A DNA stretch of 64,000 nt, taken from contig RDNZ01000008.1 of assembly GCA_011364905.1 (NCBI GenBank), positions 4,401 to 68,400 on the forward strand, in the 5' to 3' direction. Below, one piece after another: positions 1-52,580 of the stretch. Position numbers and translations under genes: made by a program. The notes under the pieces were generated by a model. That model made no database searches and was not told the DNA's origin. It worked only from the letters and a program-made list of their open reading frames with translations. The stretch is from Candidatus Thorarchaeota archaeon. Its GTDB lineage: Archaea; Asgardarchaeota; Thorarchaeia; Thorarchaeales; Thorarchaeaceae. How positions within the stretch are numbered: the stretch's first letter is position 1; every line of letters begins with the position of its first letter.

Positions 1-1
1 G

Positions 2-4256: not shown

Positions 4257-4261
4257 TAGCT

Positions 4262-15200: not shown

Positions 15201-18200
15201 TCATTTCTTAGCATCAAGATCCGCGTCGATACTTTTCAGGAGTTCATCAATTAGGGCACTAGGAAGATTCTTCGCTTGTTTCAGAATTGATGCGATTTCC
15301 TCTTGTGGTAAACCTCTTTGTTCAAGTTGTTCACGGAGATTTTCAATCTCAAGATCGCTCAATCGGTCCTCGAACTCCACCTCTTTAATTGGCACTTCAA
15401 GCTCTGTGTCTTCGATCGATTCGAGAAACGCCTGAATCTTCTCTCTCGGAGCTGTTTTTGCTTCCTCAATTATGGCGTCAATTTCCTGTTTCGGAACTTT
15501 CTTCCGGACCAATTCGGCGCGTAGGTCCTCTCGTTCCTTGTCTGATAACGTATCGACTTTCTTTCTGGGTTTTTTCTTGGTTTTTGTTTCTGGCTTTTTG
15601 AAGAACTCAAGAGCAAGTTCTCTTGGCAGCTCTCTGGCCTGCTCCATAATCGAATCTATTTCACGTTCACTTGCCTTTCGCTTGATCAACTCAGAACGAA
15701 GATCCTCTAACTCCTTTTCAGATAGATGTTCTACTTCTCCTTCTTCTATTTCTGGTTTCTTCCTAGGTGTGAAACCTTCCAGCAGCATCTGAACTACATC
15801 CTTCGGTAGATCTCTGGCTTGAGTGACGAATGACTCGATCTCATGAGATGGAATGCCACGTTTCTCTAGCTGCTCTGCCATTTCTGCTAATTCTATTTCA
15901 CGTAGTCGATGTTCAAAATCGAGACCAGTTTCCTCCTCTTCTGAGACCTCTGTATCTTCTTCGAGATCTTCATAGAGATCTGGTTTGGCTACGGTTGCAG
16001 CTCCCCCAATCCTCTTTCTTCTTTCTTCCACGACCTCGTCCATGACCTGCTCTACAGACTTGTTTTGAACCCCTGCAACCCTAATTGCCTCTTGCCCAAT
16101 TACCTCTCTCACAAAGCTAGTTTGTTGACTCATTTTCATCTTTGCAATCTCAAACTTGAAGTCGTCAAGCTCTTGTTGAGTCATTCCAGTGAGAATTGCA
16201 AGGTCAATAATCAGTTCATCTATTTCGGGGACTTCTATAATGATGGACTCTGCTGGTAGTTGAGAAGCTTTTCTCTTTATTCCAATTGGCTCATTCAATT
16301 CATTGAATAGTTCTGCAACGATGGCTTGTCTTGACCGCATACCCTTCGCTGGTTTTGGCACCTTATTCCTGCGTAGTCGTCGGACCTGACCACTGATTAT
16401 TCTAATTATCTTCGGCACCCTCAAAATCCTTACCCACAGGACACCGAAAAGAATCATGAAGATGATAAATGCACCACCAACTGTCATTACGAACCGTTGC
16501 GTAAGTTGTTCACTTGATGGGCTGACAGAGATCGAAAGCGCCACGTCATCAGCAACATAGTATGTCTTGTTGAAGTGAATTGTCACATCTGCAACACCAG
16601 TTCTATCCGTTGCTGTGACACGGAACAGATAGTAACCCTGGCGACTTTCATCCGGACCAAGATACTCGACCTTGGCAAATAGGGGTCCTTTATTATCTAT
16701 AGTAATCATGGCCTCAGTAATGCCCTCTGAAGGATGTCCTGGCCACGCGTCTGAATAATAGATCGAGAAAGTAGTGTTCATTCCCCAATGAAGCGATATC
16801 ACTTCTGGTCCCATGACCTCAAGATTCGTTTGAATCTCGATGATTTGAATATCGAAGTCAAATACTGCTGTAGTACGGTTTTCGAGAGCGAGTTGAATGT
16901 GAAACGATATCGTTAGATCCAAATCCCAGTCAAGTGTGTTAAAGACAAATGTGTAATTACCAAATCCTTGATCGGATAAAGTGAGTGGTTCTTCATAGAC
17001 ACCCCTTCCACTATAGAACGAACCATTGAAGATTCCATCAGGAATTCCCATTGCAGCGTAGGTGTCATTGTACAATAGTGTGATAGTTAGTATGTCTCCA
17101 TATGGGACTTGTAGATGTGCCCATGAGTCTCCGATTTGATATAATTCTGGTAGAAGAATTGAGATGTCAGTGGGGACTGGGGCAATATGAATTCTAATCG
17201 TTGTTTCCACATTATCATAGTTTGCCTTTCGGAATTCCATCGCAATGGTGTATGTACCTGGTCTCAATGTTGCTGTATCTATTGGGATGCCATAGACTCC
17301 TTCGCCAAGATAGGATGCACTGCCAACTCCTCCTGCCCAGGAGAACGTGAATGTATCTGCCTCCATGCCCTGGGCATGATAACTATCATAGTATGTAACA
17401 TTGACCAGCCCTGCCCATCCCCAATCAAATTCACCGGTTCCCGGTTGTATAATAATTGCCTCTAGATTCTTCACGAATATTGATGTGGAATTGTCTGCTC
17501 TCTCATAATCATCACTTGGTGCATTAGCAGAAATGATGAAGGTGTGCAGTCCAGTAATGTCTATGCTCGTATTGAAGTCATAGTAATAATATCCTGGTCC
17601 TCCTATTGATGCCCCATTCGTGAGTGTCCCATTTTTGGCGAGTTCTGGCGAGTTCCATGTCACAAAAAGCCCATCCAAACCTGTAGAAAATGGATATGAC
17701 GCGTTAAGGGCTGGAGCAAGAACATATACTCCAATTCTGACGACATCAGACCAATTGATAGGGTTGGATTCGTAAGCTGCAGTGATATTGTCGAACCAAA
17801 CGACCATCTGAATCTTTGATATCGCCATAATCAGCGTTGTCGATGCATCCGCGTAGTTTTGTTTTCCAGCATTCACATGAATCTGGTAACTTCCGAAACC
17901 AGCAGATCCAGTTGATATAAGAAATCTGTAGTATCCTGGTCTGCTTGGTATTTCTGTCAATGTGAGGTTGCCCTCATAATCCCACCACGCTGATACATAT
18001 GCTTCAGTCACAAGACTGTCATCAAGAGAGTCTCCAATATACACAATTACTTCTTCAGCATCTCCCTGGGAAACTGTGAAGACATAATTATTACCTTCTG
18101 GAATGACTTCCATGGGTCTTGGCAGTAACCTGAAAACTAGCTGCTCTGTAGCATCAATGTAGTTTGGTGCACTGCCTTTGATTACAACGATTATTGTATC

Positions 18201-21200: not shown

Positions 21201-24200
21201 AAACTCAACATTGATGAAGACGTTGGATGTGTCATTCGTAATTCCACCTGTAGATGGGCTAGAATACAGGAATGTATAGACCATATAATCAAGGCAAGGA
21301 GAGGGAAGAGCAGCTTCAATCAATGTTAGTTCAGTATCTGCTCCCAAAATTTCAACTACAATGGACAGGTATCTGTTCTCATACTTCTGAATACTTCCAG
21401 TCCAGTTGAAATAGACTCTAAGTTGTTGAATCCCAATGCCTCCAAACTGTGAGGCTGCAATCGATATAGTGTAATATCCATCGCCCCTGATTGAGTCATT
21501 ACCCCAATTAACCACCAACTGGTGAGTTGTATTCCAGACTGTGCATAGGACATCAGAAGAGGCAATTCCTTGTAAATGATCGCGATCACCATAGTAGACA
21601 GAAACATTGATTGTCCCATCCGAAGTCGTGTCCTCCACTGGTGACAAAAGTCGTAATTCTGTTGTTATTGTTCGAACGACGACCGTGACATTGAATGTAG
21701 CTGCTTCATATTCTGGCCCAGCTGCGAAGTCAAAGACTAGAAGATAAGATGTCAATGCATCGCTGTCATAGGTATGAATTGTGATACTATATCGATTAGC
21801 CACCCAAACGATGTCAAAATGAGCCGGTGTCCAACTGCAGTTGTGATTCAGAGTGAAGATTGGTAGGTTATGATCCATATCAGTATAATCGACATAGAAA
21901 GTTCGAGAGTCACCCACAGGTATTTCCAGCGCACTAATAGTAGCAGTGGCATAAGTTCTAATTTGTCGTATCTGAATGTCAATAGATATGGTCTTGTTCT
22001 CATAGGTTAATGCAGAAGCCTCAAAAGTCACACTATATGTTCCAATACCCCAAGAGGACGTGTTGAGCGTTACCCGATATCTTCCACTACTTATCAGTTG
22101 TTGACCGAGAATATCTGCTCCTGTCACATAAACAGTTGCTGTGTCAATTCCAATGCCTCTATCCAAATCAACAAACTCCAAGGTGACAATCGCATTTGTA
22201 CTGTAGGATATTGTAAGAAGGGGATAATCTGGAGAAGTCAAATCACTTTGAGCTTGCGTGAATTGAAAACTAATGATAGGCGTTTGTGTGTTGGAGTAGT
22301 TCTCTGATATTCCAAAGACTAGGAAAACCCGTATACCATAGGCGCCTCCCGCGAAATATAAGTGATCGAGAGTTAATACGTAAGTTCCTGAAGGTTGAGC
22401 TGAGAATGTTTTGATGGTGTAGACAGTCCCATTCTTATCCCTGATGATGAAGTGACTCTGTAAAAGACCATTCACGGGTGTATCGTCATATATTGAACTT
22501 GAGTCATTTACAGTCACATGAGTCGTTATCTCGAAGTCATCTCCGATTGGAAAAACATCAATGTCATCCCAAGAGAGGACAACGGCTAGCTTCTGGATCC
22601 TCAACAGTATCGACGTCGTCCCATCATAGAAGTACCTCGGAGAAGTTGTAGCGAGGATTGTAATGTCAATTACATAGGTGCCTAATGTCCAATCCTGAGA
22701 GTCGATGAGGACCTGAAGTGAACCAAAAGATGCAGACCCACCAGCCCACTCAGCCAAAACGCTAGACAGATTTCCTGATATTGCGGCATTTCCAGCGTCA
22801 CGGTCTAGTAATTGAAGAGTGACGGTGGCATTGGACCCCATGGATATAGTGCCATCATAGGAAGCCACTACGGTTGTCCTATGCGGTCTTACAGTTACTG
22901 CCACTGTGATTTGGGCTGGTTGATAATTAGTCCCATCGATTGTGAAATTGAACAAATAAACTCCAACGTCATAGGAATCAACTTCGATTTGGACCGAGTA
23001 TCTCCCATCAAGAAGGTCTGCGTATTGGAACACTCCATCACCAAGTAGTGTTCCTCCAATTATCCCCGCATCACTGTGATCAGTATCCAGCCAATTGAGT
23101 GTGATACTCGCATTACGTCCCCAAGGTACGCTGACTGGATTTACCTCGATCTGAACGAGGTCTGTCTTTATCTCCCTATAGCGGAATACAACATCAACTG
23201 AACTTCCTATCACAAAGCTTTGAGCTGGAACTGCATTTATTGTATAGCAATGTGTTCCGAAGCTCGAGCCTGTTGAAACCAGGCTGACAAGATACGTACC
23301 GTTGTTATAGTCTGTAACACCATTAATCGTACCATTTGATGTGAAAGATGCCCCATCGTAACCCGCTCTGGTAATTGCATCTTCAAGCTCCACTTTGACA
23401 CTAAAGTCATCACCATAGGGCGTTGAGGGGGGTGTCTTGAAAGATAGAATAGTGTTGCGTGAAAGTTCCAAATCAAAGAAAGTTGTTGCATCTATCAGGT
23501 ACTGATGGCTCGAAACGATATTGATTCTCCAATTTCCAGGTTGATTGAGGTCCGAGGTGTTGAGAGTCTTCCCATAGATGCCGTTACCATAGTCTTCCAA
23601 TTGAATCTGTGTTTCGGCTCCCGAGATACTCCAGTTCATTGCAACTTTAGAGCCCGCCACATCTTGGGAAGTTTCAGTATTTGTCAGTTGAACTTCGACT
23701 TTGAGAAGATCTCCTGCAGTCCGTACTGCCACACCATCTCCAACTGCGTCTGTGGGTGATAATAGACTAAGTGACGATGCATGTTTGACGGTGAACAATC
23801 TGCTATACCTTCCAACGCGTTCTGGACTTGAATCAGCTGTGTTATTGAAATCGACATGAACCTCCCAGAGCCCATTTGGCCATGCACTTGTCACACTTAT
23901 TCCAGTCCATTCAAACTGACCACTTCCATCCTGAGTAAGATCATCTGTGCTGTAAAAGAGCTGACCACTTGAATCAATCAAAGAAAGCCGCATTGCGGAC
24001 CCAGGAATCATCGTAGCAGTTCCTCGGAATTTTGCAGAGTCTCCAATTTGCAGTGCTACAGAGTTTCCATATGCCCCCGCATTCGCGCCACACTCAAGAT
24101 TTGTGATCTCATTGGAGGATGAGAACATAAATGTCCAAACTCCGTACACGTCAAGCACTGAAGAGGGCACCATGACCTGTAAGCTTGTAGCAGTGACGTA

Positions 24201-33100: not shown

Positions 33101-36100
33101 CCTTAGAATGATGCTTATGTTGATGTACCCAAATTGATAGTTGGGTCCTTTTGAAAAGTTTAGCACTACCAAGTAAGTGCCAAGACTATCTGTATCTATG
33201 CTAGGTAGCTCTATTCTATACTGGTCGCCAGTCCAACTAATACTCAATGGATAGGTCCAGTTATGATTCAGAGTCGCCCCGATTATCGCTTCATTATGTG
33301 TGATGTCCCAGTAGTCTGCGTAGAAGACAGCAGTGTCTCCCAAAGGCAAATCGATGATAGAAACAGAAGACCTTGCATATGCATATGCAATCTGCACAAG
33401 GATTTGGAACGTGAGTGTTTTTGCTTGATATCCACTTGCATCTGCAGTAATATTCACCTCGTGGGCACCAAGGTCCCATCCTTGTACGATAATCAAAACC
33501 TCGTAAGTTCCACTTCCAATGTGCTGCCATTCAATCAAAGCACCTTCCGAAGTCATGATACCCGTCGTAATGTTCTGAACATGATCAATATCAACATAGG
33601 ATAGTGTGATTGTAACATTCGTATCAAAACTAGTTGTTACACTTGGGTAATTTGAAGACGACAAGTAAGTAAGAATCGGGCGGTATGTGAATGAAACTTG
33701 AGTAGTACTACTGTCTGTGTAATTCTCTGTGGGCTGAAAGTCCACAAAGACAATGATTTCATACTGCCCTTCTAGGAACCTTGTGTTGTCAATCGTTATT
33801 TGATATCTCCCATCTCCAAGGTTCAAGAAACTCTCAAAGGTGTAAAGTCCACCTGTTTCGTTGCGAGCGCTGAAGTAGGTCTGATCAAGTCCAGCAATTG
33901 CTGTCCCGTCAATCGGACTATCCGGTTCGCTTACATTCACATGAACAAACATTACGAAGTCATTGCCATTTGGAAATGGTTCGAGAGGCTCCCAACTCAC
34001 ATACACACCCAGTTTTCGAATCTCAAGATGGATTATGATATACGAGTCCATATAGAATCTCGGGGATGCCGTGGCACTTATCGTCGCATTGATGGAGTAC
34101 GACCCCGCTGCCCAACCACTGGTATCCACCCAAAAGCCTAGCACAGAATGACTGTCACTTCCAGTTCCCCAATCCAAGCTTACTTGGGTCAGATTGCTAG
34201 GACTTACAGGAACTGAATCAAGATCTAGATCCATCCACAAGACATCAAAGTAGACATCAGTACCAACAGGTATGGTGGAGTTATAGTTCACGCTTGGCGT
34301 TGTTCTGTGTGGAAGAATCAAGATGCTTATTGTGGTCGTTGATGATTGGTAATTTTGCTTTGAGCATGTTAGGTCGAAGTAGTAAGTTCCAGGCATAAAT
34401 GAACTCACGTCGATTGTGATGAGATAATTGCCAATGCTGGTTTCATCTACCTGTATCGGAACAATTGGAGAAATTGAGATTGTGCTACTATCTACTCCAA
34501 TTCCTGCGTGGTCGATATCAAACCAGTATATACTTGTGTTCACTTGTTGCCCCCATGGAGCCTCAACTGCATCAGGACTGAGTGGAATAGTTTCAGTTGC
34601 AATAGGCCTATAATTGAATTGAACATCTATACTGCTACTCAATAGATACGTAGTACTTGGGGTTGCTATGAACCTAAATGTGTGCTCCCCACTTGAGAAC
34701 CCTGTACTATCCACTGTCACAAGGTATGTCCCATTTCCATAATCTGTAGGTATTCCTAAAATTGTCGCATTACAGGAGAGGGTTGCACCTGTCAATGGCG
34801 TGCTATCGAATTTGTCCCTCAATGTCAACCTAATCTCAAAATTGTCGCCATATGGTGTATCATTTGGAGGTTCATATGTCATGAATGTTCTGTGCGAGAG
34901 GTCTAAATAGAGGAAATCCGTTGCATCGCTATAGAATGAGTGTGATGCTTGAACATCTAACCTCCAACGGCCATAGCCGCCTAAATCGGACGTATTCAGT
35001 GTCTTGCCATATCTTCCGTCTCCATAATCATTGAGCTGAACATCCGTGGGTGTACCACTGACGCTCCAATTCATTGATACCGTTGCACCACTCACCATTG
35101 TTGAGGTCAATGTATCTTGCAGATCAAACTCAACATAGAGCTGCTCGCCGATGAGCTTGGTTGAAATTCCATCAAGTATAGCGTCTCCTGGTGCAGTGAG
35201 GCTTAAAGAAGTTCCACGTTTCACAATGAAAGTCCTATCAAATATACCTGTTCTGAGGTTTACGTCAGAATTGCTATCACTATACCTCGTGGTAGCATGC
35301 CAAACTCCTGCAGGAGCAGAGGTGTCCAAGTTGATGGACGCTGACTCTGAATATCCTATGTTTTCCTCCAATCCTATCGAATAGAAGTTGCTTGGATTGT
35401 ACTGATTGCTGAACTGCGTTTGAATCCATCCTGCTGAACGTGTGACATCCGAAACACGCACCTCGTCGATTTGGCCATCCCACTCTGCGCTCCAGGTCTT
35501 GTTCTGAGGTTGGTCACCTTGTCCAATCCAGAAGTCCTTCTCAAATGAAGAGGGTTCAATCGCATTCGTTTTTGTTAGAACATTTGGATCCTGAACTCCA
35601 TCCACATAGATTCTCATCAACGAACCATCGTAGGTTGCCACAATCTGATGCCAAGAACCTCCAGTGACATCATTGGCTCCGACAAGCTGATGAGTATCGC
35701 CGGGTAGGCTGAAGGTTGGTTTGATGGTTGAGCCTCCGCCATAATTGATGTACAAGGCATATCCATCATACCAGCCTTTGTGGTTCATTATGCCATAGAC
35801 ATGAGTATTAGGAGTGATGTCATGCTGAATCCACGCTTCAAGTGTTATCTGATATCCATCAATATCCCAAAGAGGACTGTCTCCACAGTCTATGAAATCG
35901 TAATAACCATCAAGATTATTGAATTCCTGACCAGCGCCAATCTTTCCGACTGTTTGAGTCGGAACAAACAAGCTATCCCCATCCCCACCTTGACCATCGT
36001 TCTTGTATTGGCTACTGTCTCGATACTCACCCAGTAGTCCCGTTCCACTTTCAGAGAGGTGCCAAACCCCCAGATATCCTGAATCCCAAACAGGTCCCGA

Positions 36101-39100
36101 ATCGTACACTATTGGGGCTAATGGGTTTCCATAATACATGCTAATTACGGTGTCTGTTGAACCAGACAGTACTGGCACATTTACCCAAGCCACGAGATGA
36201 GCATGAGTCAGGTTGTAGGTTTGGTCGAAAAGTTCTATCTCATGCGAGAGTGTTTTTTCGCCAATTGTGAAGGCAATGTCCCTACCGTCGGCGCGCACAT
36301 CTGTTCTTAGATCCGTATCGTATATGTCTACTAGCACGGGGAAGTTGACAAGGTTTTCCATGACGTTATCATGACTGATTGCCAAGTATTTTCTATGGTA
36401 GTACGGAAGGGTAAACCCAGCTCCCTGAAATGTTGTACTTCCCGCATACCATGTAGAGCCTGTTGGGTCCGTCAGCTCTAGAGAAATCGTAGAACCAATG
36501 GTTCCAGAACTCCAAACATGGAATTGGATATTCTCGCCAACTGCAAACTGCCCTGTGGTGGAATAGGGCCCTCCACTGGGTCCAATTTGCATGTCAAGAA
36601 CATGATTTCTATCTAGGAATTTAATCTTCCACATACCATATTCATCAATCGCAGTTGAGCCAACTATCAGTTTACCATCGAAACATGTCCAATCGGCTGC
36701 AAATGTTCTCTCGACCCCTGAGGGACTTGCAACAGAAAATGGCCACCACTCACCCTCTGGGTATGAAATCTCAAAAGAAACCGCTTCTAATTCAGGAGGC
36801 GGAGAAATCATCACATTCGCGGTCCAAATCGGCAGACTACCATTAACGATGGAAAATGATGTGCCTTGAGTAAAGTCATCAGCATAACTGAGTATCGAAG
36901 TCTGTACTCCAAGCGACAGTTCAGTTCCAACTGTGATGCTAGATTCAGAACTTGTTGTGAAGATGTATCCATTGCCACTCACCTGTTCCTCTGACTCGAT
37001 GGAGTAGAAGGAACTAGGATTGTATTGATTATTGTACTCTGTCAATATCCAACCAGAAGACCGAATAGCAGGTGAAACTTGAATTTCATCGAATCTCCCT
37101 AGAAAACGACTGGCTGAATCAAGTTGATTCCCTCCCCATAGCCAATCACCAAGACTTGCTAGTTGGGTCCATTGTGTTGGCACATTTTCTATGGCTAGAA
37201 TCAATTGTGTGCCATCCAAGTAAATCTCAACAGTTTTCGTAGAATAGTCAAGTGTGACAACGAGATGATGCCACACATTGTTTGTAAATGGATTGGTTAC
37301 AAGATTATAATCGATGTCGTTTCCGCCCCAGGGGTAGAAGAAGTTGTCACCATCAGGTTGTACCGCCCATTCAAAGCCATCGTCTTGGATGAGGGTGGGC
37401 GGAGGAGATGGGTTCAGTATGAATCGGTCGCTTGTCGTCATAATACGCTGATATCCCCCATCGGAAGAATTCACCCAGTTAATCCAGATTGAAAGAGTTC
37501 CCCCAGATTTAATGGAGTCTAAGCTGGAGCTTTCAGAAACATTGATCATGTCATCAATGCCATCCAACTCAAATCCACTGCCTATTTGACCTTGGACTAA
37601 ATCTGAACCGCTCATAGATCCTAAGGTCGCCCCATCATTATTGTAATGAGTACTGTCAAGCACTGTTCCTGCTGGACTTTGGTCTAGATGCCATACGCCA
37701 ACATAACTTCCCCATACTGCACTCGGATTTTCTTGATTCGTCAGATCTGGGTTGCCATAATACATGGTGATTGTTGTATCGATTGAAGAAGAAAGGTCTG
37801 TCTTGACCCAAGCAATAAGATGGGCATGCGTGCCATTATATGTTTGGTCGAAGTACACGATTTCGTGTGGGCACCAAGTATATCCATTCTTGAACATGAT
37901 GTCATCTCCATCAGCCTGTACATCGGTTCTTAGATCTGTGTCAAAGATGTCAATGAGCATAGGAAAATCAGTCAGGTCTTCTGCAACCATTGCGTGATCA
38001 ACAATCAAATTCTTCCTATACTTGAACTCCGCAGTATTAACATTAGGCTGATGTTCCGCCTGGGATGTCTTTTCCGGTCCAATAGTGTAGAAACTTGATG
38101 GACTATATTGGTTACTATATTCAGTCGCAATCCATTCAGGTGAAAGCGCAGTATTTGCAACACGCACTTCATCTGTGTTTGCAGTGGACCAATAGCCAAG
38201 AGTACCACCTATCTCACTGCGGAATGCGTTTATGTAGAAGGATTCCACCTCGTCAAGACTGCCATAACCTGTAATATCAATTGGAGAATTCGGATCCTCT
38301 GCTCCATCAATGTATAGTCGAAGATAGTTCCCATCTCTTATCATAGAAACAAGGTGCCACAAATTGTCCCCGTAGGTTGATGTCGAGTAGATGTTCTTCG
38401 CTACAGTATTGTCGTCAATCGCTGCCATCAACATTCCTGGACCTGATTCTATGCTAATTCGATATCTCTTAGCCATAAGTACAGCACCTTTTCCGGCAAG
38501 GGTTCCCATGTTCACACCATCATAATTGAACCACAGTGAAAATGAGAAGTCATTAGAACCCACATTTAACGAAGTATCATTCCCACAGTTAATGTAGTCC
38601 TGTGTATTGTCGAAATCAATGCTCCCATCAATCTGTCCTTCTACCTGATCGTCTGATTGAAGATTGTATCCTGTGCCATCATTCGAATTACTTGTCGAAT
38701 CATAAAGCGGTCCGGTCGGATTTTCACTAAGATGCCAGACCCCTCTGTAATTAGAGTCCCATACACCTGCGACGTTCTCTTGGTTCCCAACGACAGAGTT
38801 ACCGTAATACATTGTGATTACTGTATCAACTGATGATGAAAGGTCAGTCTTAACCCAAGCTACCAGATGTGCATGGGTGTCATTATAGGACTGCTCGAAG
38901 GACTCTATCTCATGAGGAAGGATAATTTCACCAGATTTGAATATGATATCATCACCGTCAGACTGCGCTTTCGTTCTTAGGTCAGCATCAAAGATATCTA
39001 TGAGCAATGGAAAGTCATTTAGATCTGTGCCAACCTTTGTATGATCAATGGCTATGTCCTTCTCGTAGTTGTATTGGGTGGCTTGATTGATTTCTATCCC

Positions 39101-42100
39101 AAGTGATGTTGTGGGTTCAGGACTAACGTATGGCCTTAGAAACACGTCATCCGCATAGACAGTATTGGGTTCCGTCTGAGGACTTGCCCAATAGAACACA
39201 GTACAGAACCTGTTGACACCCTCTGAGCCTAGATTTATTCCTGTTTCTTCGACTTCAAGGTTTCCATCAACCCACAGTCTTGCTTCTCCATCCGTGGTCG
39301 AGAATTTAGCTTGTATTTCTAGCATGTGCCAAGAACCCTTGGAAATTGGACTCGTAGTCCCGTAACCATATGCTTCACTCGCAATAGCGTTCCACAGGTA
39401 CAGGGACATATCGCTGTATATGGTCAGGCTTAGCTGGTTTACCCAAACTGGGGACGTATCAACGAATTGCATTATTGTGACATGATCAGTAGTCGAAAAA
39501 GTCGCAGGGAGATAGAAGTGGACTCTAGCAAACAGACTCGTCTTGTCACTGAAATCCTTCCAGATCATTGCCTGAGCTGCGGCCTGATTGTCAACCACTC
39601 CTTTTGCTGAATAGGTACCAGTATTGGCCTGCTCCGTGGTTACTGACAGCGAGTCTCCAATATCCGTGTATGAGCCATCCCAAGAGTTAAGGTCGCCACT
39701 CTCAAACCCATCATAGAATTGGAAGACGTTGGCGTGGTTGTCTGGTGGTGAAGATACCGATGGATCTCCATAGTATAAATAGTAATTATCATCAGCTGTT
39801 GAAGATGGAATGTCAGACTGAATCCTGAACCATACCTTTGTGGCTGCAGAGTCCCATGAAGAATCAGAGTCCAATACTCTGTCCAGTTCAATTAGGCTGA
39901 AACCATTCCAATACATAATCCGCATGTCATCACCATCAGCCTGTGATTTTCCTGATGCAACCAATGCTGCGTGATCGAATGTCACCGAAGTGGAGTATCC
40001 CGCCGTAACTGGCTCAGAACCAGTGGTGACAGTGATCTGTCTACTGAATTCGTAGGTTTCTCCAAGCATGGTTTCCTCCTTTACAGTATAGAATGATTCT
40101 GGATCATTCTGATTGTTGAACTCCGTAGTGATCCAGTCTGGGCTTCGATAGGAACTTGAAACTCGCACCTCATCAATGCGACCATCCCATTCCTGTATGA
40201 AGCCAGTTGAGCCGGGGTTATTGCCTATTTGGAGAACTGATGTGCCAGTCTGGGTCGTACCGCTATAGGGTGCACTATTCCGCTCAACTCCATCAACATA
40301 CAAGAGCAGTTCACTGGTTCCTGCGTTTGCCACACCGACAACATGATGCCACTTGCCATCATTCACGAGACTGATGGGTGCAGTCACGCTCTGAGTATTG
40401 TCGACATAAAATGCGAAGGTCGAACTATCCAACTTGCCTAACCAATAATTCCGATGACCCACAGCACCCCACTTGGCTACTATCACATCCGAAGTAGGAT
40501 CTGTATTGTTTGTATGTACCCATGCTTCCACCAGCATGTCTGATGATAGAACAAGTGAAGTAGAGTGTGGTGCCTCGATGCGTTCATTGGTTCCTTCTCC
40601 ATAGAACTCGGAGCATCCGTCGAATTTTCCTGTTTGAAGAGTGGGTTCAGTACCAATTGGGAGACCCACAGCGTCATTGCTATTTGAGGTACTATCATAC
40701 ACAGTGTCAGCTGGATCCTCGCTAAGATGCCACACGGCTGCAAAAGAAGTATCCCAGACACCGTGAGGATTCTCTAAACTATTCGAATTGGGATTTCCAT
40801 AATACATGGATAACACAGTATCAGAAGATGCAGAGAGATCTGTTCTCACCCAAGCAAGAAGGTGTCCATGTGTGGAATTGTATGACTGCTCGAACAGCTC
40901 AATCTCGTGAGGGAGTATCCATCCATCTTTTACAAACACAATGTCATCGCCATCAGATTGAACATCGAATCGAAGGTCTGAATCGAAGAGATCAATAAGA
41001 ACTGGAAATCCATAGAGATCCGCGGTCACCTTAGTGTGATCGATAACAATGTCTTTCTTGTACATGAAACCAAGAGGTACTTCTTGGGGAACTGTGACTT
41101 CTTGCTCAATCCCTATCGAGTAAAAGCTAGAAGGATTGTTTTGATTGTTGAACTCTGTAAGAATCCATTCTGAAGTGGTCGTAGAGCTGAGAACATGAAC
41201 TTCATCGATTTTCGCCGATAGAAACAGATTGGGTGCTCCAGCGTTGTCGTAGTTGTCACACGCCGCAATCAGAAATGGCTCAATGGAATTAATACTTCCA
41301 TATCCAGTGATGTCAACTGGCGAGGTCGGTACTTCAGATCCATCAATGTAAAGATGGAGAAGATTTCCTTCTCTCACCATGGCAGCGTAGTGCCAGAGGC
41401 CATCATTCAGCGCTGACGCCGAATAAATGCTGATTTTTCCAGGTGACGCAGAGTTGTCGTCGATTTCTGCCTTTATTGTTCCTGAACTTGTGACTGACAA
41501 CATGTATCTGTAGGCATCTGTGCCGATAGCTCCTTTATTGGCAAGAGGTGCGTCCAGATCGGATGTGGCGAACCACAAGCTCATAACAAAATCATTGTAA
41601 CCCACTGCAAGCGAGGCTGTATCTCCACAGTCTATATAGTCATTTGATCCGTCAAAGTCAATAGCATTGCCTATTAGACCCGGGACTTTGTCTTCTTCGA
41701 GCATTGTGCCGTACGTAGTCCCATCATTGTTGTTGTATGTACTGTCAATGATTTGTGGGGCTGGCTTGCCAACAGATGGACTTTCTCCGAGGTGCCACAC
41801 GCCTTGATACTGATTTCGCCAGACCTCCTCAGGACTTTCTTTGGCCCCCATGGCAGAATTTGCATAATACATTGAGATTATCGTGTCCGATACAGATGAG
41901 ATGTCTGCCCGTACCCAGGCGACTAAGTGTGCGTGTGTTGAGTTATACTGTTGGTCGAACAGTTCTAACTCATGCGGTAGACTCCTGCCATTTGATGTGA
42001 ACATTATGTCGTCGCCGTCTGGTTGGACCTTCGAATGCAGGTCTGAATCATAGATGTCAATCAACACTGGAAATCCCGTGAGGTCGGCTGCAACTTTATT

Positions 42101-44812
42101 GTGGTCAATTTTGATGTCCTTCTTATACTGGAAGTTGACTGCCTGTTCGCCAAGTGTCAGAAATAGCTGTGGATTTTTCTGATTGTTATATTGAGTTTTA
42201 ATCCATGCATCCGATCTTGCAGTATTTGAAATCCGAACCTCATCAACTATTGCATCGAGATATGACGTTCCACCTGGGTTATCGGACCTGCGGCCAATTC
42301 TAACCGGTCGAGCTGGGTCGTTCGTAGATGCTGGGATCCCGGTTGTCACCTCATCAACTAGCTCACCATTCAGGTAGAACCTGGCAAAGACTGAAGGGTA
42401 GAAGACTCCAACAACGTGGTACCATTGACCAGCATCGACCCGTTCATAACCAACAGTGTTGGTATTTACACCATCTGGGCTATACCGAAACATGACCCAC
42501 CCTGAAGGACTAATGGAAGAATCATCATCAAAACTGATGTCCCATCCTCGATAACCTGATTCGCCGGACTTGACTACAAGATAGTCATTATCTATGAAAT
42601 TCGCCTTGAACCAAGCTTCAACGGTGAATGCTCCAGTCATCTGCAATTCTGTTGGATCTCCAAAGTCTATGTAGTCATTCACGCCCTCCAGATCGATGGC
42701 ATCTCCAAAATACCCGCCGACGCTATCAGTAGAAGTCATTGTTCCATACGTCGTCCCGTCAAGATTGTGGGATGTGCTATCCACAATCTGAGGTTGATGC
42801 GGTAGATAGTCGGCTTGAGAAGAGTCCCACTGTGGTTGCGAAGGGTTGTCATTCAGATGCCAGACAGCAGAATAGCCCGAATCCCATACAGCCTCCGGAT
42901 TCTCTTGGCTTCCAAGATTCTCATCACCATAAACCATGACAATTGTTGTGTCTTCTACTGACGACAGATGAGGAGCTTTTACCCAACAAACCAGATGTGC
43001 ATTCGTTCCATCTCCCTGCTTGTCAAACAAATCCAAATCGTATGGAATAACTTGACCATTATACAGAAATGCGATATCGTCACCATCTGGTTGCGCATTA
43101 AGGTGAAGGTCCTGGTCCCATATATCTACAAGGACCGGGAAGTCTTGAAGATCCGAAACAACTTTGGTGTGGTCGATGACGATGTTCTTGCTAAAGCTGA
43201 AGCTGGGGATTGTATCAGATGCTTCTGAATCAGTGAAATCTACGAAAAGCCTGGCGAGGTCTGCTTGCGCAAATCCTGATGAGCCCTTTATTTGGTTGTA
43301 CGCATATTGCTGGTTCGAATATGCATAATCAATCATTATACAGATGTAATTGCCCCTCTGCCAACCCGGTCGTGAAACAACCTCCTGGATAAGGGATGAT
43401 ATATCCGGAGTGTCATACCTCCCATTTGCTGTCCACGTTGTAGGATGCCAATATACGCTCGTGTTCACCCAATCATACCTGTCTGGAAGAAGGGGGTACC
43501 CACTGGTGAAGGCAGCAACATTGTCTTCATCAGCTACGTAGACACGCATTCCTGGAAAACCAGTTGAGTCACTTACTGCTTCCACTCGCAGGTTCGCTGA
43601 AGTAATTGATGCTCCTTGAGGTACATACAGTGGAAACTGAAATCCAACTTGATACGCAAAGGCATCACTCCAATCGCTTCCAAAAGTCGTGGGAACATCA
43701 GCACCAACATCCAACCACCCATTATTACCGTAGCCGTCGAGATCGACTCCCCCAGACCCCCCATTTGAATCAGGGGCACTATAGCAGTCTCTGTTAATGC
43801 CATCTGGAACATATGGATTCACACTCCCTTGTGTTGAACCAGTCACGCGAGCACCATTAGCAAGAAGATCAATCTGCTCAGGAAACGGACGTACAGAGAG
43901 TCTTAGCTCTATCTCATCGATGAACACCTCATGATCTGCAGTACTGGGATTGCCATTGATATCTGTCCCAAGTCCTATATTGAAAAGTAATGCAGTCGTT
44001 ACTGGCAACGACTCAAAGTATGATGAAGGAACCGTGGCACTAGCCTGAAGCCATGTGTCCATAGGTGTACCAAGCCCAAACACGTGGTACTTTGAAACAT
44101 AGCCCTCAAGACTAGTTGTGATGAATACCTCATCATTCAGAGTAGAGGTGCTTGAAACATAATATTGAAAGCTAATTTCTGCTGAGTAGACATTCCTCCA
44201 AGGAATGGGGACCTGTTGACTCATATAGAATCCGTTGGTGGGATTGACGGTTGCCCCGCTATCTAGATTACCATCGAATCTCCAACCTGAACTCGCATCA
44301 TACCCAGCACCAGCTACGCGATTGATTTCAAAATAGCCATGCTGAGGGTGCTGGGTCCCACTGGGAACTGCGTCATTCTTCACAAATGTCCAAGCATCCG
44401 GGATAAAGAAGGGGTCGTAGTTATACTCCGGATGGTCTGTAAGAAACCAATGTTCCTCATGGTATGTATCGAGTTTTGAATTGACAAGCACATCATCGAC
44501 CCACATCGAGAGATGGTCAAGATCTGCTTCTAATCCCTCGGAACTCCAACCTAAAGGCGGATCAATGCCAACAAACGCTGTGTGCGAATAGTCAATTACA
44601 GAAGTTCCGCTTGCAACACTCAGCCCGTTGATGGTTCCAGGCAAGGGATTTCCATTCCCTGAGTTGGTGTCCTGCCAATCACTAGGGACAAAATAATCTC
44701 CTCCAGCTATGGGATTTTTATTAAATGAAAACCCATCATTGGTTATTGGACCACTTGCGAATGGGACCAAGAAGATTATAACAAATGCAAGAGCAATCCC
44801 TGCCTTTTTCAT
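27143..44812 (-). CDS. Giant type-I membrane surface protein (5889 aa) with multiple DUF2341-like/LamG-like modules
   Basis: Uninterrupted 17,670-nt ORF. Signal peptide MKKAGIALAFVIIFLVPFASG. ~540-aa head domain homologous to the smaller giant. Six canonical modules (FPVLVDI/FPVLIDI/FPLLIDI/FPMLIDI + DGDDI + VWHL + W..T.(Y/F)NNQ.NP) plus one divergent module. Long repeat array. TM AILFGVPIGAILLLGAVLWT (27860..27919). 238-aa cytoplasmic tail (27146..27859). Confidence 0.85.
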   Translation of the reverse strand: MKKAGIALAFVIIFLVPFASGPITNDGFSFNKNPIAGGDYFVPSDWQDTNSGNGNPLPGTINGLSVASGTSVIDYSHTAFVGIDPPLGWSSEGLEADLDHLSMWVDDVLVNSKLDTYHEEHWFLTDHPEYNYDPFFIPDAWTFVKNDAVPSGTQHPQHGYFEINRVAGAGYDASSGWRFDGNLDSGATVNPTNGFYMSQQVPIPWRNVYSAEISFQYYVSSTSTLNDEVFITTSLEGYVSKYHVFGLGTPMDTWLQASATVPSSYFESLPVTTALLFNIGLGTDINGNPSTADHEVFIDEIELRLSVRPFPEQIDLLANGARVTGSTQGSVNPYVPDGINRDCYSAPDSNGGSGGVDLDGYGNNGWLDVGADVPTTFGSDWSDAFAYQVGFQFPLYVPQGASITSANLRVEAVSDSTGFPGMRVYVADEDNVAAFTSGYPLLPDRYDWVNTSVYWHPTTWTANGRYDTPDISSLIQEVVSRPGWQRGNYICIMIDYAYSNQQYAYNQIKGSSGFAQADLARLFVDFTDSEASDTIPSFSFSKNIVIDHTKVVSDLQDFPVLVDIWDQDLHLNAQPDGDDIAFLYNGQVIPYDLDLFDKQGDGTNAHLVCWVKAPHLSSVEDTTIVMVYGDENLGSQENPEAVWDSGYSAVWHLNDNPSQPQWDSSQADYLPHQPQIVDSTSHNLDGTTYGTMTSTDSVGGYFGDAIDLEGVNDYIDFGDPTELQMTGAFTVEAWFKANFIDNDYLVVKSGESGYRGWDISFDDDSSISPSGWVMFRYSPDGVNTNTVGYERVDAGQWYHVVGVFYPSVFARFYLNGELVDEVTTGIPASTNDPARPVRIGRRSDNPGGTSYLDAIVDEVRISNTARSDAWIKTQYNNQKNPQLFLTLGEQAVNFQYKKDIKIDHNKVAADLTGFPVLIDIYDSDLHSKVQPDGDDIMFTSNGRSLPHELELFDQQYNSTHAHLVAWVRADISSVSDTIISMYYANSAMGAKESPEEVWRNQYQGVWHLGESPSVGKPAPQIIDSTYNNNDGTTYGTMLEEDKVPGLIGNAIDFDGSNDYIDCGDTASLAVGYNDFVMSLWFATSDLDAPLANKGAIGTDAYRYMLSVTSSGTIKAEIDDNSASPGKISIYSASALNDGLWHYAAMVREGNLLHLYIDGSEVPTSPVDITGYGSINSIEPFLIAACDNYDNAGAPNLFLSAKIDEVHVLSSTTTSEWILTEFNNQNNPSSFYSIGIEQEVTVPQEVPLGFMYKKDIVIDHTKVTADLYGFPVLIDLFDSDLRFDVQSDGDDIVFVKDGWILPHEIELFEQSYNSTHGHLLAWVRTDLSASSDTVLSMYYGNPNSNSLENPHGVWDTSFAAVWHLSEDPADTVYDSTSNSNDAVGLPIGTEPTLQTGKFDGCSEFYGEGTNERIEAPHSTSLVLSSDMLVEAWVHTNNTDPTSDVIVAKWGAVGHRNYWLGKLDSSTFAFYVDNTQSVTAPISLVNDGKWHHVVGVANAGTSELLLYVDGVERNSAPYSGTTQTGTSVLQIGNNPGSTGFIQEWDGRIDEVRVSSSYRSPDWITTEFNNQNDPESFYTVKEETMLGETYEFSRQITVTTGSEPVTAGYSTSVTFDHAALVASGKSQADGDDMRIMYWNGFSLIELDRVLDSDSSWDSAATKVWFRIQSDIPSSTADDNYYLYYGDPSVSSPPDNHANVFQFYDGFESGDLNSWDGSYTDIGDSLSVTTEQANTGTYSAKGVVDNQAAAQAMIWKDFSDKTSLFARVHFYLPATFSTTDHVTIMQFVDTSPVWVNQLSLTIYSDMSLYLWNAIASEAYGYGTTSPISKGSWHMLEIQAKFSTTDGEARLWVDGNLEVEETGINLGSEGVNRFCTVFYWASPQTEPNTVYADDVFLRPYVSPEPTTSLGIEINQATQYNYEKDIAIDHTKVGTDLNDFPLLIDIFDADLRTKAQSDGDDIIFKSGEIILPHEIESFEQSYNDTHAHLVAWVKTDLSSSVDTVITMYYGNSVVGNQENVAGVWDSNYRGVWHLSENPTGPLYDSTSNSNDGTGYNLQSDDQVEGQIDGSIDFDNTQDYINCGNDTSLNVGSNDFSFSLWFNYDGVNMGTLAGKGAVLMAKRYRISIESGPGMLMAAIDDNTVAKNIYSTSTYGDNLWHLVSMIRDGNYLRLYIDGAEDPNSPIDITGYGSLDEVESFYINAFRSEIGGTLGYWSTANTDEVRVANTALSPEWIATEYSNQYSPSSFYTIGPEKTSQAEHQPNVNTAEFKYRKNLIVDHAMVAEDLTDFPMLIDIFDTDLRTDVQADGDDIMFKNGYTWCPHEIVYFDQTYNGTHAHLIAWVKTDLSSSIDTTITMYYGNPDLTNQENPSAVWGSYVGVWHLDQSPAGTVLDSTHYNNDGATLGSMSGSDLVQGQIGSGFELDGIDDMINVSESSSLDSIKSGGTLSIWINWVNSSDGGYQRIMTTSDRFILNPSPPPTLIQDDGFEWAVQPDGDNFFYPWGGNDIDYNLVTNPFTNNVWHHLVVTLDYSTKTVEIYLDGTQLILAIENVPTQWTQLASLGDWLWGGNQLDSASRFLGRFDEIQVSPAIRSSGWILTEYNNQYNPSSFYSIESEEQVSGNGYIFTTSSESSITVGTELSLGVQTSILSYADDFTQGTSFSIVNGSLPIWTANVMISPPPELEAVSFEISYPEGEWWPFSVASPSGVERTFAADWTCFDGKLIVGSTAIDEYGMWKIKFLDRNHVLDMQIGPSGGPYSTTGQFAVGENIQFHVWSSGTIGSTISLELTDPTGSTWYAGSTTFQGAGFTLPYYHRKYLAISHDNVMENLVNFPVLVDIYDTDLRTDVRADGRDIAFTIGEKTLSHEIELFDQTYNLTHAHLVAWVNVPVLSGSTDTVISMYYGNPLAPIVYDSGPVWDSGYLGVWHLSESGTGLLGEYRDSSQYKNDGQGGDGDSLFVPTQTVGKIGAGQEFNNLDGYYDFIDCGDSPLWDIDGYQITLEAWIQHDITPNTHVYGIMNHKGWYDGYALYINYGGGSTIKPTFSLPGDTHQLVGANDVTGGSWHQIVATYDGSLMRIYVDGVQDPNVLTKTNAIEPSSFEKDFWIGQGDQPQNKTWSAEWDGQIDEVRVSDVTRSAGWIQTQFSNQYNPSNFYSIGLEENIGYSESASINLDTSAPAGVWHATTRYSDSNSDVNLRTGIFDRTFIVKRGTSLSLTAPGDAILDGISTKLIGEQLYVEFDLQDTLTSTMVSGATVSMNWSVSGTPTDVQLNDYGDGRYGKTLNTSDLGGYGRWRLDVQASHSFYSDATDFLYLDLSHRTFMTYEPPNDTPYGDNFEIRLTLRDKFDSTPLTGATLSCNATILGIPTDYGNGTYLVTVDSTGFSSGEHTFRFIATPSTTYLLSSSIDVQFNYRPIATETIPLSPDAVEAPWGQQVNTSIYWFDIDHAGIGVDSSTISISPIVPIQVDETSIGNYLITIDVSSFMPGTYYFDLTCSKQNYQSSTTTISILILPHRTTPSVNYNSTIPVGTDVYFDVLWMDLDLDSVPVSPSNLTQVSLDWGTGSDSHSVLGFWVDTSGWAAGSYSINATISATASPRFYMDSYIIIHLEIRKLGVYVSWEPLEPFPNGNDFVMFVHVNVSEPDSPIDGTAIAGLDQTYFSARNETGGLYTFESFLNLGDGRYQITIDNTRFLEGQYEIIVFVDFQPTENYTDSSTTQVSFTYRPILTYLSSSNYPSVTTSFDTNVTITLSYVDIDHVQNITTGIMTSEGALIEWQHIGSGTYEVLIIVQGWDLGAHEVNITADASGYQAKTLTFQILVQIAYAYARSSVSIIDLPLGDTAVFYADYWDITHNEAIIGATLNHNWTYPLSISWTGDQYRIELPSIDTDSLGTYLVVLNFSKGPNYQFGYINISIILRTHLTEFRLASATEPTSYNAMVNISVYCGDLDNDLGIIDAPVNLSVYGDSGWISSTFKNDTTLGNGYYIISFAATNLGTSGIYDITVYFNWTGPVPKFYDNSVVSSVRIVGEASDLELIVSAEPTPYLENLSYTYFYSELYSGNGISNVSAPAGNVFIYVEFVSQSFSPSLFSIKEDSGNLGHYTIEFNSTIFAEPGVYTMVVHVNWTETQEPFYGNWTDTVSVRVIPRSTLINLVPPESTPYGVNATFSFSFDDIAGSGSYSIANSSQMRVTIGLADYSLTYNTSARQFHVSFNTSILGAPLGTRQFTIGVSWIGAPFYANLTGRNVIISVRYRETEFDYSTISPTAYGDNVTLHLTFNDITPGQSQTIDDGFITLYNGSGAIPVTEYSFMPLGNGEYDVELKTTYFTKPGTYTITVAMSTSHFYYDIVTASRTLSLRYRLTVLLIEPVEETAYNNSLQVVFHYSDVLTLSEIGNSSTPTTVWILNGSSWFFVSVWRGAPEDYLLTIDTHNQNLEINKEYVLWIQVSYPDSSPFYLSAEAFVSFTLQERATILEVTESPEPTQYLDSVDFAVYYQDSSSSAGIAGATITLAVGGTNLVEGIDYSLLSPFDGSYYISINTTVLGPAGSSVNLELGASWIDNEPYYSTSTLSLTLTVTERNSITEIVSSTTQVKFLENVTFTIRYSDETSGKAIQFSKDQLLIYNEGTLLSSNDFAMVYLGSGYEISINSSVLAAGLIDNQNITFYIDWHNTVAPYYADGRASSWVTVANRIGIVIRGATPTVPIYDNMTLNFTYVDDSNGAGINDAIVVFDCLSPSGLAEGTDFWIYRNSGDYSIFVDTTSLGSIGTFTFSLRLLWNPTVAPYYRNTTTIFLQGSVRLIQLQLTNEEPVPSTVPINDNVSVILNLQDLDHFVPISGAESLFSVEYKTNASGPYIWSITPISPGIYNLTVDCYDAGTTVTNALIITLALPDYQTVQVQVPFQIRLRQGELNELVSQKPYYSETTFVIVELVDTDANNTPISDATLSITWPDIGYTPYYTNLGNGQYNITLTTSSLDAGLYTLMVGALRSDYFISDISVPVEIQRIPTGLILPQTIPDVYWGDDISFWAIFNDTKAGTVISGATLTYQFGTLSGSLTEIVSDQGNYTVTVDTGNLVLASTYVISITATFNNYVTNTSQVIVNVLKLPTTVSIISSAQQEVFKGTPVNVTVYVNNTYRNIPLLGATVTVRWVLQGPQSISLSPIPAKDGYYTCFIDTNDFLVGQYSITIEASGTNYLRSVAPASIKVKQIATVLQLDALTSSYSGQSFNWSDTIRIGVYVLAPSLNESDPFSTGLANCTVLWSLSGTTFTGEFLNGTSMEGPGYFYFDFETWNYDVSTYTLRITAYPNIGMFAYSSNLTTLIIKPIETSVESTYLSPKIWGWTGWVDITYWDLLFDRGIAGATVLVEWDGGESTSTYVANGTYQVFINASLVSPGIYPVSVRFLMDNYKSGTGVFTLNVKEVPTDIAAFAPTINQIDHDVLNLQIPYGDTISLTLFYNDTWYNRGIMGATETKCVILGSSVPDGDNLLIEEITNGNYSLLIDTTRWTVSSDPYRLILNFHLTNWSRATLDIHLTIIDVPTALYIDPSSVTMNYGQVFSIWVLYYDTWEGHMNASIVGASINATSLDTRFVDVSLNQSDPSRPGWYEIRVRSNRAEGTALVSIILSKDNYVSISALVTVSVEPSEFDLLVEQAILFGVPIGAILLLGAVLWTRLFSVPKQLRAIRKMVRTIAKGKIPKPPDGVLSRQEIVANLFNDIAEPIGITKIASSMPSEPIASDVPEIEELLIQLSILSKLSPEELEDFKLDVSKMKLSEQVSFVKEVINQEAIKQARLERKPMEVILEETAAKARAVLAGEEIEVVVESKPLEERIIPPEVEEPEEAIPEPVEFEEVESAEMLDEDELKQIRKKLESVGIKGSELETIMDQARELPRSLAEELLRSILGKGGEEE
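27930..35230 (-). repeat. Array of ~100-aa beta-sandwich-like (Ig-like) repeats, extracellular stalk of the 5889-aa protein
   Basis: Periodic strand motif of aromatic/aliphatic residues followed by D/T-rich turn and I.GA (e.g. IYWFDIDHAGIGVDSS, VTITLSYVDIDHVQNITTG, AVFYADYWDITHNEAIIGATL, VNISVYCGDLDNDLGIIDA). Collinear with the array in the smaller giant. Confidence 0.6.
35362..43198 (-). repeat. Array of ~350-aa DUF2341-like + LamG/ConA-like modules inside the 5889-aa gene (protein-level tandem repeats)
   Basis: Module starts read on the reverse strand near 43198, 42115, 41050, 40000 (divergent, lacks the FPVL motif), 39060, 38005 and 36385. DNA identity between modules is only moderate, so the duplications are old. 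A ~200-aa non-module segment sits between modules 6 and 7. Confidence 0.7.
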
Positions 44813-45780: not shown

Positions 45781-45848
45781 ATAAGAATAGTAATTAATTA
45801 CACCTCATAGTGTTGATTATTATTGAGGAAGGCGTGGTTGTCGTAAAG

Positions 45849-51837: not shown

Positions 51838-51839
51838 CT

Positions 51840-52577: not shown

Positions 52578-52580
52578 ACC

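Follow-up and report, generated by a model that had tools for sequence, protein, structure and literature searches.

A 64,000-nucleotide stretch of contig RDNZ01000008.1 (assembly GCA_011364905.1) of a Candidatus Thorarchaeota archaeon, hereafter the window, carries two adjacent giant genes, denoted A and B, whose products are predicted type I surface proteins of 5889 and 3981 amino acids (aa), respectively. Both genes and all their features lie on the minus strand, A at 27143..44812 and B at 15201..27146 of the window. The gene structure, domain anatomy, indicators of topology, conservation, and chromosomal residence of this pair are observed. We consider the architecture and localization of A and B that follow from them quite likely, and, on balance, we regard it as probable that A and B are giant type I glycoproteins of the fibrillar adhesin or receptor kind, produced from coupled genes and acting as a heterodimer.

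As the earlier note on this DNA had stated, A and B are two unbroken open reading frames (ORFs) that overlap as ATGA. The ORF list and the sequence itself show 0 internal stops in A and 0 in B over 17.7 kb and 11.9 kb, and the stop codon of A (TGA, 27143-27145) overlaps the start codon of B (ATG, 27144-27146) at 27143-27146. A Shine-Dalgarno (SD) sequence, GGAGGTGA (27153-27160), is located 6 nt upstream of the B start, within the final codons of A, the coupling junction spanning 27143..27160 in all. The ATGA overlap and the SD within the end of A support translational coupling, which had been proposed previously and would link the synthesis of the two proteins. The homology of A and B also proved to be collinear as claimed: BLASTP aligned A1-900 with B18-895 (35.6% identity, E = 5e-141) and A3149-5878 with B1072-3849 (35.7% identity, E = 0), and the peptides quoted for this alignment were located at A3242 and B1165. 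Five segments of A between these two blocks all match a single module of B, at approximately 545-900.

The pair is conserved well beyond this genome. A profile search that covered 1.84 billion representative sequences recovered 1065 representatives of the giant family at E ≤ 1e-3 and 235 at E ≤ 1e-30. Such proteins had been called rare in archaea; within Thorarchaeia, where they form this multigene family, they are not. The A-type cluster has eight members, seven that measure 5531-5543 aa and a fragment of 3322 aa, with 12 records on contigs that reach 296 kb; on the B side, P0051 (3989 aa) is an ortholog with 57.5% identity to B over the full length. The junction between A and B, with its 4-nt overlap and G-rich SD, is repeated in four other contigs (loci L014, L018, L019, and L022), so that overlap and SD are maintained at ~57-59% protein identity. 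L019 contains the entire upstream synteny together with an A of 5531 aa and a B of 4004 aa, the full-length B-type proteins thus ranging from 3989 to 4004 aa, and in L022, A and B (3989 aa) are followed by the methylase, aminotransferase, PolB, PCC, HIT, and GIFT genes, exactly the downstream order of the window. Hence, the pair and its syntenic flanks co-occur in independent assemblies of Thorarchaeia, a point that had been suggested as a check across Asgard genomes. A scan of Genome Taxonomy Database (GTDB) genomes with a head profile made from 8 closer sequences yielded 13 loci, one from Hermodarchaeota and the other 12 labeled as Thorarchaeota or carrying no name. Where the contig extends far enough upstream, the gene order is endosomal sorting complex required for transport (ESCRT), aspartyl-tRNA synthetase (AspRS), (hydrolase), Ras, leucine-rich repeat (LRR), and A-type gene; in 6 of the scanned loci, no stop interrupts the A-type ORF for 3800-3900 aa, up to where the locus ends. 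The conservation of the pair, the overlap, and the flanks, along with the full-length orthologs, indicates that these genes are real, chromosomal, and under selection and represent neither an artifact nor a recent insertion of a mobile element. The A/B pair is a stable chromosomal locus.

Named members of the family, identified by homolog searches and by looking up hits, come from Thorarchaeota, Hermodarchaeia, Promethearchaeota, and one member of Sifarchaeia. A 900-aa stalk query matched Thorarchaeota proteins only, plus one from Sifarchaeia. Homologs of the head found in the homolog search are few, all fragments, and exclusively from metagenome-assembled genomes (MAGs) of Thor-, Hod-, and Promethearchaeota, and a 3420-aa protein of Lokiarchaeum ossiferum has in common with the family no more than the signal, the stalk, and the C-terminal transmembrane (TM) helix. 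Two paralogs with housekeeping surroundings are solitary: P0057 (5048 aa, 30 stalk repeats; L020:10001-25147), whose gene is flanked by DUF2334 and RadA-like genes, and P0074 (4409 aa, 33 stalk repeats; L021:10001-23230); no partner giant, LRR, or Ras gene was found around either. Homologs in public assemblies are often broken, by a frameshift in L018 (~5975), Ns in L017 (~5056), or a 100-N gap in L015 (9901-10000), and, because of such breaks, the family is mostly annotated as “partial hypothetical protein.”

In the stalks of the two proteins, iterated hidden Markov model (HMM) searches delineated 23 tandem immunoglobulin (Ig)-like domains of ~105 aa in A (aa 3191-5593; 28034..35242) and 23 in B (aa 1117-3514; 16605..23798), the latter being positional orthologs of the former. 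The repeats show sub-threshold Pfam matches to Ig families and related domains (Invasin_D3, Big_3_5, CarboxypepD_reg, FlgD_ig, and PKD), and the stalk-repeat profile produced nothing significant against PDB sequences. Evidence on the fold comes from the two membrane-proximal domains of B, which are homologous to those of A and were modeled for B, not A: in the AlphaFold2 (AF2) model of B3300-3981 (27 sequences; predicted local distance difference test [pLDDT] 80.3), the last two repeats are beta-sandwiches, for which Foldseek retrieved the KIT ectodomain, the FdeC adhesin, titin, filamin, SbsB/SbsC, LigA, and protocadherins. The repeat number is 23 in all A- and B-type orthologs and varies from 16 to 33 in solitary paralogs and other members of the family. 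Over ~2450 aa, the stalks of A and B align with gaps of 0-6% per 100 aa, apart from one block with 11% close to the membrane-proximal end. The mean identity of stalk domains at the same position is 35.8% compared to 18.7% off the diagonal, and for 19 of the 23 domains, the best partner occupies the same ordinal position. The per-position identities to orthologs are correlated between A and B, with Spearman coefficients of 0.71 for L019 (p = 3e-4) and 0.45 for L022 (p = 0.03); these correlated rates fit a length-matched pair and can also be explained by en bloc duplication with inherited constraints. Stalks that are strictly equal and conserved position by position suggest that the two chains pair side by side. 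Together with the conserved gene overlap, the 23:23 stalks and their nearly gap-free alignment provide circumstantial support, at the sequence level, for an A-B hetero-oligomer.

The stalk is followed by a single TM helix, at aa 5625-5657 in A (27842..27940; hydropathy 2.39) and aa 3548-3581 in B (16404..16505; hydropathy 2.56), the latter being helix 246-293 of the AF2 model of B and homologous to the helix of A. Beyond it, A contains a predicted cytoplasmic tail of 232 aa (27146..27841) that, according to alignments and a motif HMM, comprises a juxtamembrane helical block, an acidic linker, and one 47-aa unit (27170-27313). The predicted tail of B is 400 aa long (15204..16403) and, according to AF2 and the motif HMM, consists of a four-helix block, a disordered acidic linker, and four 47-aa units (15225-15908). 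Both tails are rich in E, K, and R. In the model of B3300-3981, the long TM helix leads into the four-helix juxtamembrane block and the disordered linker, and the four terminal units each form three helices with pLDDT of 85-95. The consensus of the unit is DkLSe.EIEELRkeLvkkGiP.hEIetImeQARELPRELVeELLKSi; the motif HMM finds one copy in the tails of A-type proteins and solitary paralogs and four in B-type proteins (B, P0014, and P0015). A SAP/HeH/LEM-like identity of the unit, which had seemed plausible by eye, was rejected: the PDB matches are helical and at noise level, Pfam gives none, and AF2 predicts a plain three-helix unit. Across 27 homologs, 21 residues of the juxtamembrane block are invariant, and the identity of A and B in the TM/juxtamembrane window is 44%, the cytoplasmic part being the best conserved non-repeat region of these proteins. 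Separately, P0146, a protein of 294 aa, combines an unrelated N-terminus of 110 aa with the juxtamembrane block and the three-helix unit and lacks the TM helix; possible explanations are a chimera and a soluble relative of the family that retains only the tail.

The orientation of both proteins is indicated by several features. Basic residues directly follow the TM helix in A and B. Glycosylation sequons (N-X-S/T) number 79 in the ectodomain of A and 70 in that of B (densities of 1.4 and 1.97 per 100 aa; expected, 1.0 and 0.85), compared to 0 and 1, respectively, in the tails. Thus, the type I topology envisaged in the earlier note, in which a very large ectodomain is joined to a cytoplasmic tail, is supported by hydropathy, the basic residues, the AF2 model (pLDDT 80), and the sequons, and a hydrophobic N-terminus, a single TM helix near the C-terminus, and a charged tail are present in both proteins. 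The proteins do not conform to the class of PGF-CTERM/archaeosortase-processed S-layer glycoproteins, in which a PGF motif lies ahead of the TM helix and the tail is short and basic: this motif is missing, and the tails comprise 232 and 400 aa. At the opposite end, the hydrophobic segments span A1-25 and B11-39. The predicted signal peptide of A (44747..44812) consists of MKK, a hydrophobic core, and ASG, with a helix at residues 2-19 of the AF2 model; the corresponding segment of B (aa 1-39; 27030..27146), which combines a basic n-region and a core of 12 residues, is predicted by hydropathy to be a signal peptide or a signal anchor. Hydrophobic N-termini with basic n-regions are retained in the orthologs and are candidate export signals.

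The distal parts of the ectodomains begin with heads of ~515 aa, in A at aa 23-537 (43202..44746) and in B at aa 40-544 (25515..27029). The B head is homologous to that of A (within the first BLASTP block, at 35.6% identity) and has counterparts in the B-type heads of P0012 and L014. Neither head has any Pfam or NCBIfam match, and the head profile found nothing significant among PDB sequences. The AF2 model of the A head, built from 14 sequences, consists of two beta jelly-rolls, and Foldseek aligned it to tandem carbohydrate-binding modules (CBMs) of the CBM22 family (4xup, 6e-10) and carbohydrate-binding domains of BcsB, as well as to Cry toxin domains, malectin-like ANXUR (ANX) ectodomains, and CBM4 (TM-score 0.52). 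This model suggests that the head adopts a carbohydrate-binding-type fold. Domain-wise structure prediction followed by Foldseek, which the earlier note had recommended, thus leads to CBM-like domains for the head of A and to Ig-like domains for the membrane-proximal stalk of B.

Between the head and the stalk, A contains an array of seven DUF2341-containing modules (aa 538-3150; 35363..43201), delineated by Pfam searches of the whole protein and of each segment and by self-BLAST. The modules are ~350 aa each and start with DUF2341, which is followed by Laminin_G_3 in six of the seven and by a PF14099 (Polysacc_lyase)-like jelly-roll in the fourth. The Pfam scores for A are 270.4 bits for Laminin_G_3 (PF13385; cutoff 27.6; 6e-81) and 118.5 bits for DUF2341 (PF10102; cutoff 23.4; 2e-34). 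B has a single DUF2341 + Laminin_G_3 module (aa 545-1085; 23892..25514), which scores 32.1 and 29.2 bits, respectively, above the gathering cutoffs; the extra modules ascribed previously to the larger protein accordingly amount to seven against one. In module 4 (39074-40012), PF14099 (heparinase I/PL20-like) matches aa 1703-1890 with 50.2 bits (cutoff 29.9) over profile positions 1-209 of 210; the search of PDB sequences gave no solved structure that matches this module. A 240-aa stretch inside the array (36413-37132) is free of matches in the per-segment Pfam search, and neither module 4 nor this spacer has an NCBIfam match. At the DNA level, the module copies of A are old, being 60-80% identical over just 40-53 nt, and there are no near-identical repeats, which makes collapse of repeats during assembly improbable.

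Taken together, these observations are consistent with a specific model. A and B would be co-transcribed, translationally coupled, paralogous giant type I membrane glycoproteins of this Thorarchaeia archaeon, each exported via the N-terminal signal and retained by the single C-terminal TM helix. The rod of 23 Ig-like domains, if extended, would measure ~80-100 nm, as estimated from the typical size of an Ig domain, and its far end would bear the two-jelly-roll CBM-like head and the DUF2341 + LamG units, seven in A and one in B, with one unit of A replaced by the polysaccharide lyase-like jelly-roll. Matched, position-conserved stalks could bring the A and B chains together as a side-by-side heterodimer or, short of that, give them the same height. 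Location of carbohydrate-binding-type modules at the far end of the rod argues for an adhesin- or receptor-like mode of action, in which the proteins would bind glycans, cells, or particles far from the membrane. The conserved four-helix block and the three-helix C-terminal unit(s) could be the intracellular docking end of the fibril, a role that we infer for the tail. Likewise, we infer glycan binding, adhesion, and heterodimerization of A and B from the domain content and the matched stalks. The pair, to which no function had been assigned, can thus be narrowed down, with the help of Pfam, AF2, and Foldseek, to a predicted lectin-headed fibrillar adhesin or receptor architecture.

Several observations weigh against this interpretation. 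The solitary paralogs have no partner, so pairing is not required in the family. In L011, from a MAG labeled as Hermodarchaeota, a B-type gene (1-7668, plus strand; 46% identity to B1415-3976) ends just upstream of the Ras-LRR-A genes, so the A-to-B order is not universal. Equal stalk counts and correlated rates could reflect en bloc duplication instead of physical pairing. Confidence in the head model is moderate (pLDDT 60.6), and, apart from the single-domain match to CBM4, its Foldseek TM-scores are low; glycan binding by the head and the modules is predicted from sequence and fold. The N-terminus of B could be either a cleaved signal peptide or an anchor. None of the tail elements matched a known family in Pfam, NCBIfam, or PDB sequences. 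More generally, the functional interpretation of A and B as a whole is computational, derived from sequence comparison and structure modeling.

Genes around the pair include those for EAP30/Vps22-36-like, ESCRT-II Vps25-like, Vps4, and Snf7 proteins, AspRS, arginyl-tRNA synthetase (ArgRS), TFIIB, and PolB; along with the LRR and Ras/Roc genes, they mark the host as an Asgard archaeon of the Thorarchaeia type. Upstream of A, the order is LRR, two Ras genes, alpha/beta-hydrolase, and AspRS. The LRR gene (44968..45600, minus strand) encodes a 210-aa LRR-only protein (Pfam LRR_8, 4.7e-14) without a signal peptide; it directly precedes the A-type gene in 12 loci and is absent next to solitary paralogs, and its membership in the A/B system is uncertain. 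Two tandem Ras/Roc-family GTPase paralogs (45810-47090 and 47236-48480, plus strand), each with an unannotated N-terminal region of ~210 aa, correspond to a single copy in related genomes and thus look like a lineage-specific duplication. There is no ROCO architecture: LRR and Ras/Roc are encoded in separate genes, and Pfam searches of the neighbors found no COR match. The ESCRT cluster (51046-54558) encompasses EAP30/Vps22-36-like (plus strand), Vps25-like (minus), Vps4 with the MIT and Vps4_C domains (minus), and Snf7 (plus) and is syntenic in L002, L006, L007, L012, L013, and L019. On the other side, gene B converges with an N6/N4 DNA methyltransferase gene (13817-15163, plus strand), and a protein with an IFT52 GIFT domain (1.3e-16) and a coiled-coil-like C-terminal half is encoded at 4262-5452 (minus strand), in the same position as in L022. 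Five ORFs of 277-768 aa in the window have no Pfam match (491-2797, 2745-4256, and 9458-10492 on the plus strand; 10496-11329 and 54561-56138 on the minus strand); the last of these, a 525-aa ORF adjoining Snf7, is 70-83% identical in related genomes.

Alternatively, A and B could be independent, non-pairing adhesins or components of a glycocalyx-like coat or S-layer substitute that share an operon for co-expression only. This is a serious, if clearly less probable, explanation. It accommodates the relatives of 4409-5048 aa that stand alone in housekeeping neighborhoods, the size of the family, to which Thorarchaeia-type MAGs contribute members of many lengths, the Foldseek matches to the S-layer proteins SbsB and SbsC, and the dissimilar distal ends, given that, with seven modules against one, the heads of A and B cannot share the same height. 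It does not predict a stalk count fixed at 23 in both A- and B-types when solitary paralogs range from 16 to 33, the nearly gap-free register of the stalks, or the retention of the 4-nt overlap and SD at ~57-59% protein identity. A signaling receptor, in which the tail block and units relay ligand or contact sensing to the LRR protein and the Ras/Roc GTPase(s), appears unlikely. The LRR gene, on the same strand as A, and the divergent Ras gene accompany the A-type gene in 12 loci, including the most divergent one, L011, where the context further upstream differs from that in the other loci; both encoded proteins lack a signal peptide and TM segment; and the cytoplasmic part of A and B is strongly conserved. 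However, the entire region, including ESCRT and AspRS, is syntenic in related genomes, so that this adjacency may be inherited rather than functional; LRR and Ras neighbors are absent from the solitary paralogs, although these carry the same tail; and no COR domain or kinase was found, nor does the tail contain a recognizable signaling domain. Linkage of the family as a whole to LRR and Ras was rejected given the solitary paralogs, the adjacency being specific to the A/B locus, where it may be functional or inherited. An elaborate version, in which a ~100 nm heterodimeric adhesion receptor recruits the LRR protein and the Ras/Roc GTPase via the juxtamembrane block and the three-helix units (one in A, four in B), is similarly unlikely.

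Two further explanations concern the origin of the locus. Aloposons of Ca. Heimdallarchaeum are mobile elements that, as described in the relevant passages of Wu et al. (2022, Nat Microbiol, PMC8813620), carry the tandem giants Otus and Ephialtes (3000-6000 aa), adjoin tRNA genes that lie downstream of the giants, and have four consecutive upstream genes including one for a MinD/ParA-like ATPase. The same passages (Extended Data Fig. 7) report tandem, mutually homologous giant genes in Thorarchaeota MAGs that are distantly homologous to one aloposon giant; in our view, these are very probably the gene pair described here or its orthologs. The A/B pair, with products of 5889 and 3981 aa in an Asgard genome and a DNA methylase gene just downstream, could be seen as cargo of an aloposon-like element. 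We consider this highly improbable and rejected a mobile origin of the locus. ARAGORN detected no tRNA genes in the 64-kb window; there is no MinD/ParA, integrase, or transposase among the neighbors, nor the four-gene upstream aloposon set; both flanks, ESCRT-AspRS-Ras-LRR upstream and methylase-aminotransferase-PolB-PCC-HIT-GIFT downstream, are syntenic; and the GC content of the giant genes (0.42-0.46) is similar to that of the flanks. The methyltransferase gene occupies the same position in L022 and thus does not point to a mobile element. No Heimdallarchaeial proteins appeared in three word-indexed homolog searches or among the 20 profile hits that were looked up. What A/B shares with aloposons is the adjacency of giant genes in Asgard archaea; the flanks here, in contrast, are conserved housekeeping genes. 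That the ORFs are assembly artifacts or decaying pseudogenes, as the fragmented, frameshifted, or gapped homologs in MAGs (L015, L017, and L018) could suggest, is already refuted by conservation across assemblies, and we assign it next to no probability: 17.7 and 11.9 kb are free of stops, full-length orthologs exist in independent assemblies, domain order and count are conserved, and near-identical DNA repeats are lacking. These full-length orthologs and the divergence of the repeats likewise argue against frameshifts and collapsed repeats, which the earlier note had named as potential refutations.

The gene pair thus has been noted before, without being dissected: the account of Wu et al., in the passages concerned, is limited to synteny cartoons and CDD domains and is silent on the 23:23 stalks, the coupling, the tail modules, the size of the family, or the conserved flanks (PMC8813620). 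According to a survey of archaeal huge proteins, those of at least 5000 aa mostly carry an N-terminal Laminin_G_3 domain and have functions that are not understood; three Thorarchaeota proteins of this kind were counted in UniProt (PMC11573180). Laminin_G_3 near the N-terminus is common to these proteins and A/B, and the survey leaves the stalk, tail, and pairing unresolved. Large, PilY1-like DUF2341 proteins of methanococcal type IV pilus loci have been proposed to be pilus-tip adhesins (PMC4858521). These share with A and B the presence of DUF2341 in large extracellular, putatively adhesive proteins; unlike them, A and B have no pilus genes nearby and are predicted to be membrane-anchored themselves. 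Literature searches on Asgard surface proteins, LamG, or LRR-Roco links retrieved nothing relevant besides these three reports (PMC8813620, PMC11573180, and PMC4858521).

Among the closest architectural parallels are bacterial fibrillar adhesins (such as FdeC/intimin-invasin, LigA, and SiiE-type), which resemble A and B in the Ig-like stalk and in the secretion signal and lectin- or CBM-type distal domains predicted for the latter two. Two hallmarks of this class, a tandem Ig-like stalk and a cell surface anchor, here the single C-terminal TM helix, are present in A and B; the hydrophobic N-termini are candidates for its export signal, and the LamG_3 modules and CBM-like head for its distal adhesive domain. 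The anchors differ: A and B rely on the TM helix and a 232-400-aa tail, whereas bacterial adhesins use LPXTG, a beta-barrel, or retention in the type I secretion system. Unlike the bacterial adhesins, A and B are archaeal, form a coupled paralog pair, and have a fixed number of stalk domains. Thus, A and B are a matched pair of paralogs in which the architecture of a fibrillar adhesin is combined with an anchor and a tail that are unusual for it. The topology predicted for A and B, with signal, Ig array, single TM helix, and tail, is also that of eukaryotic type I adhesion receptors, such as Ig-like cell adhesion molecules (IgCAMs), protocadherins, and KIT-type receptors. This likeness is at the level of the fold only, with 8-16% identity, and the tails are unrelated; homology is not implied.

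No known relatives of eukaryotes are closer than Asgard archaea, and models of eukaryogenesis based on syntrophy depend centrally on the contacts that these cells make with partners and surfaces. In this archaeon, two genes for surface proteins take up 46% of a 64-kb window, in a locus that adjoins ESCRT and small GTPase genes, and the topology of their products resembles that of eukaryotic adhesion receptors more than the typical anchors of prokaryotic adhesins. Given that giant genes are routinely broken in MAGs, the family is under-annotated. The fixed stalk of 23 domains in both partners is a testable molecular-ruler feature, and the conserved tail domains, which fall outside known families, are concrete targets for interaction screens. 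Should the tails indeed engage the LRR protein and the GTPases, extracellular contact with glycans or cells would be coupled, in an Asgard archaeon, to intracellular responses close to ESCRT or the cytoskeleton, and the system would represent a prokaryotic, forerunner-like analog of eukaryotic adhesion receptor signaling.

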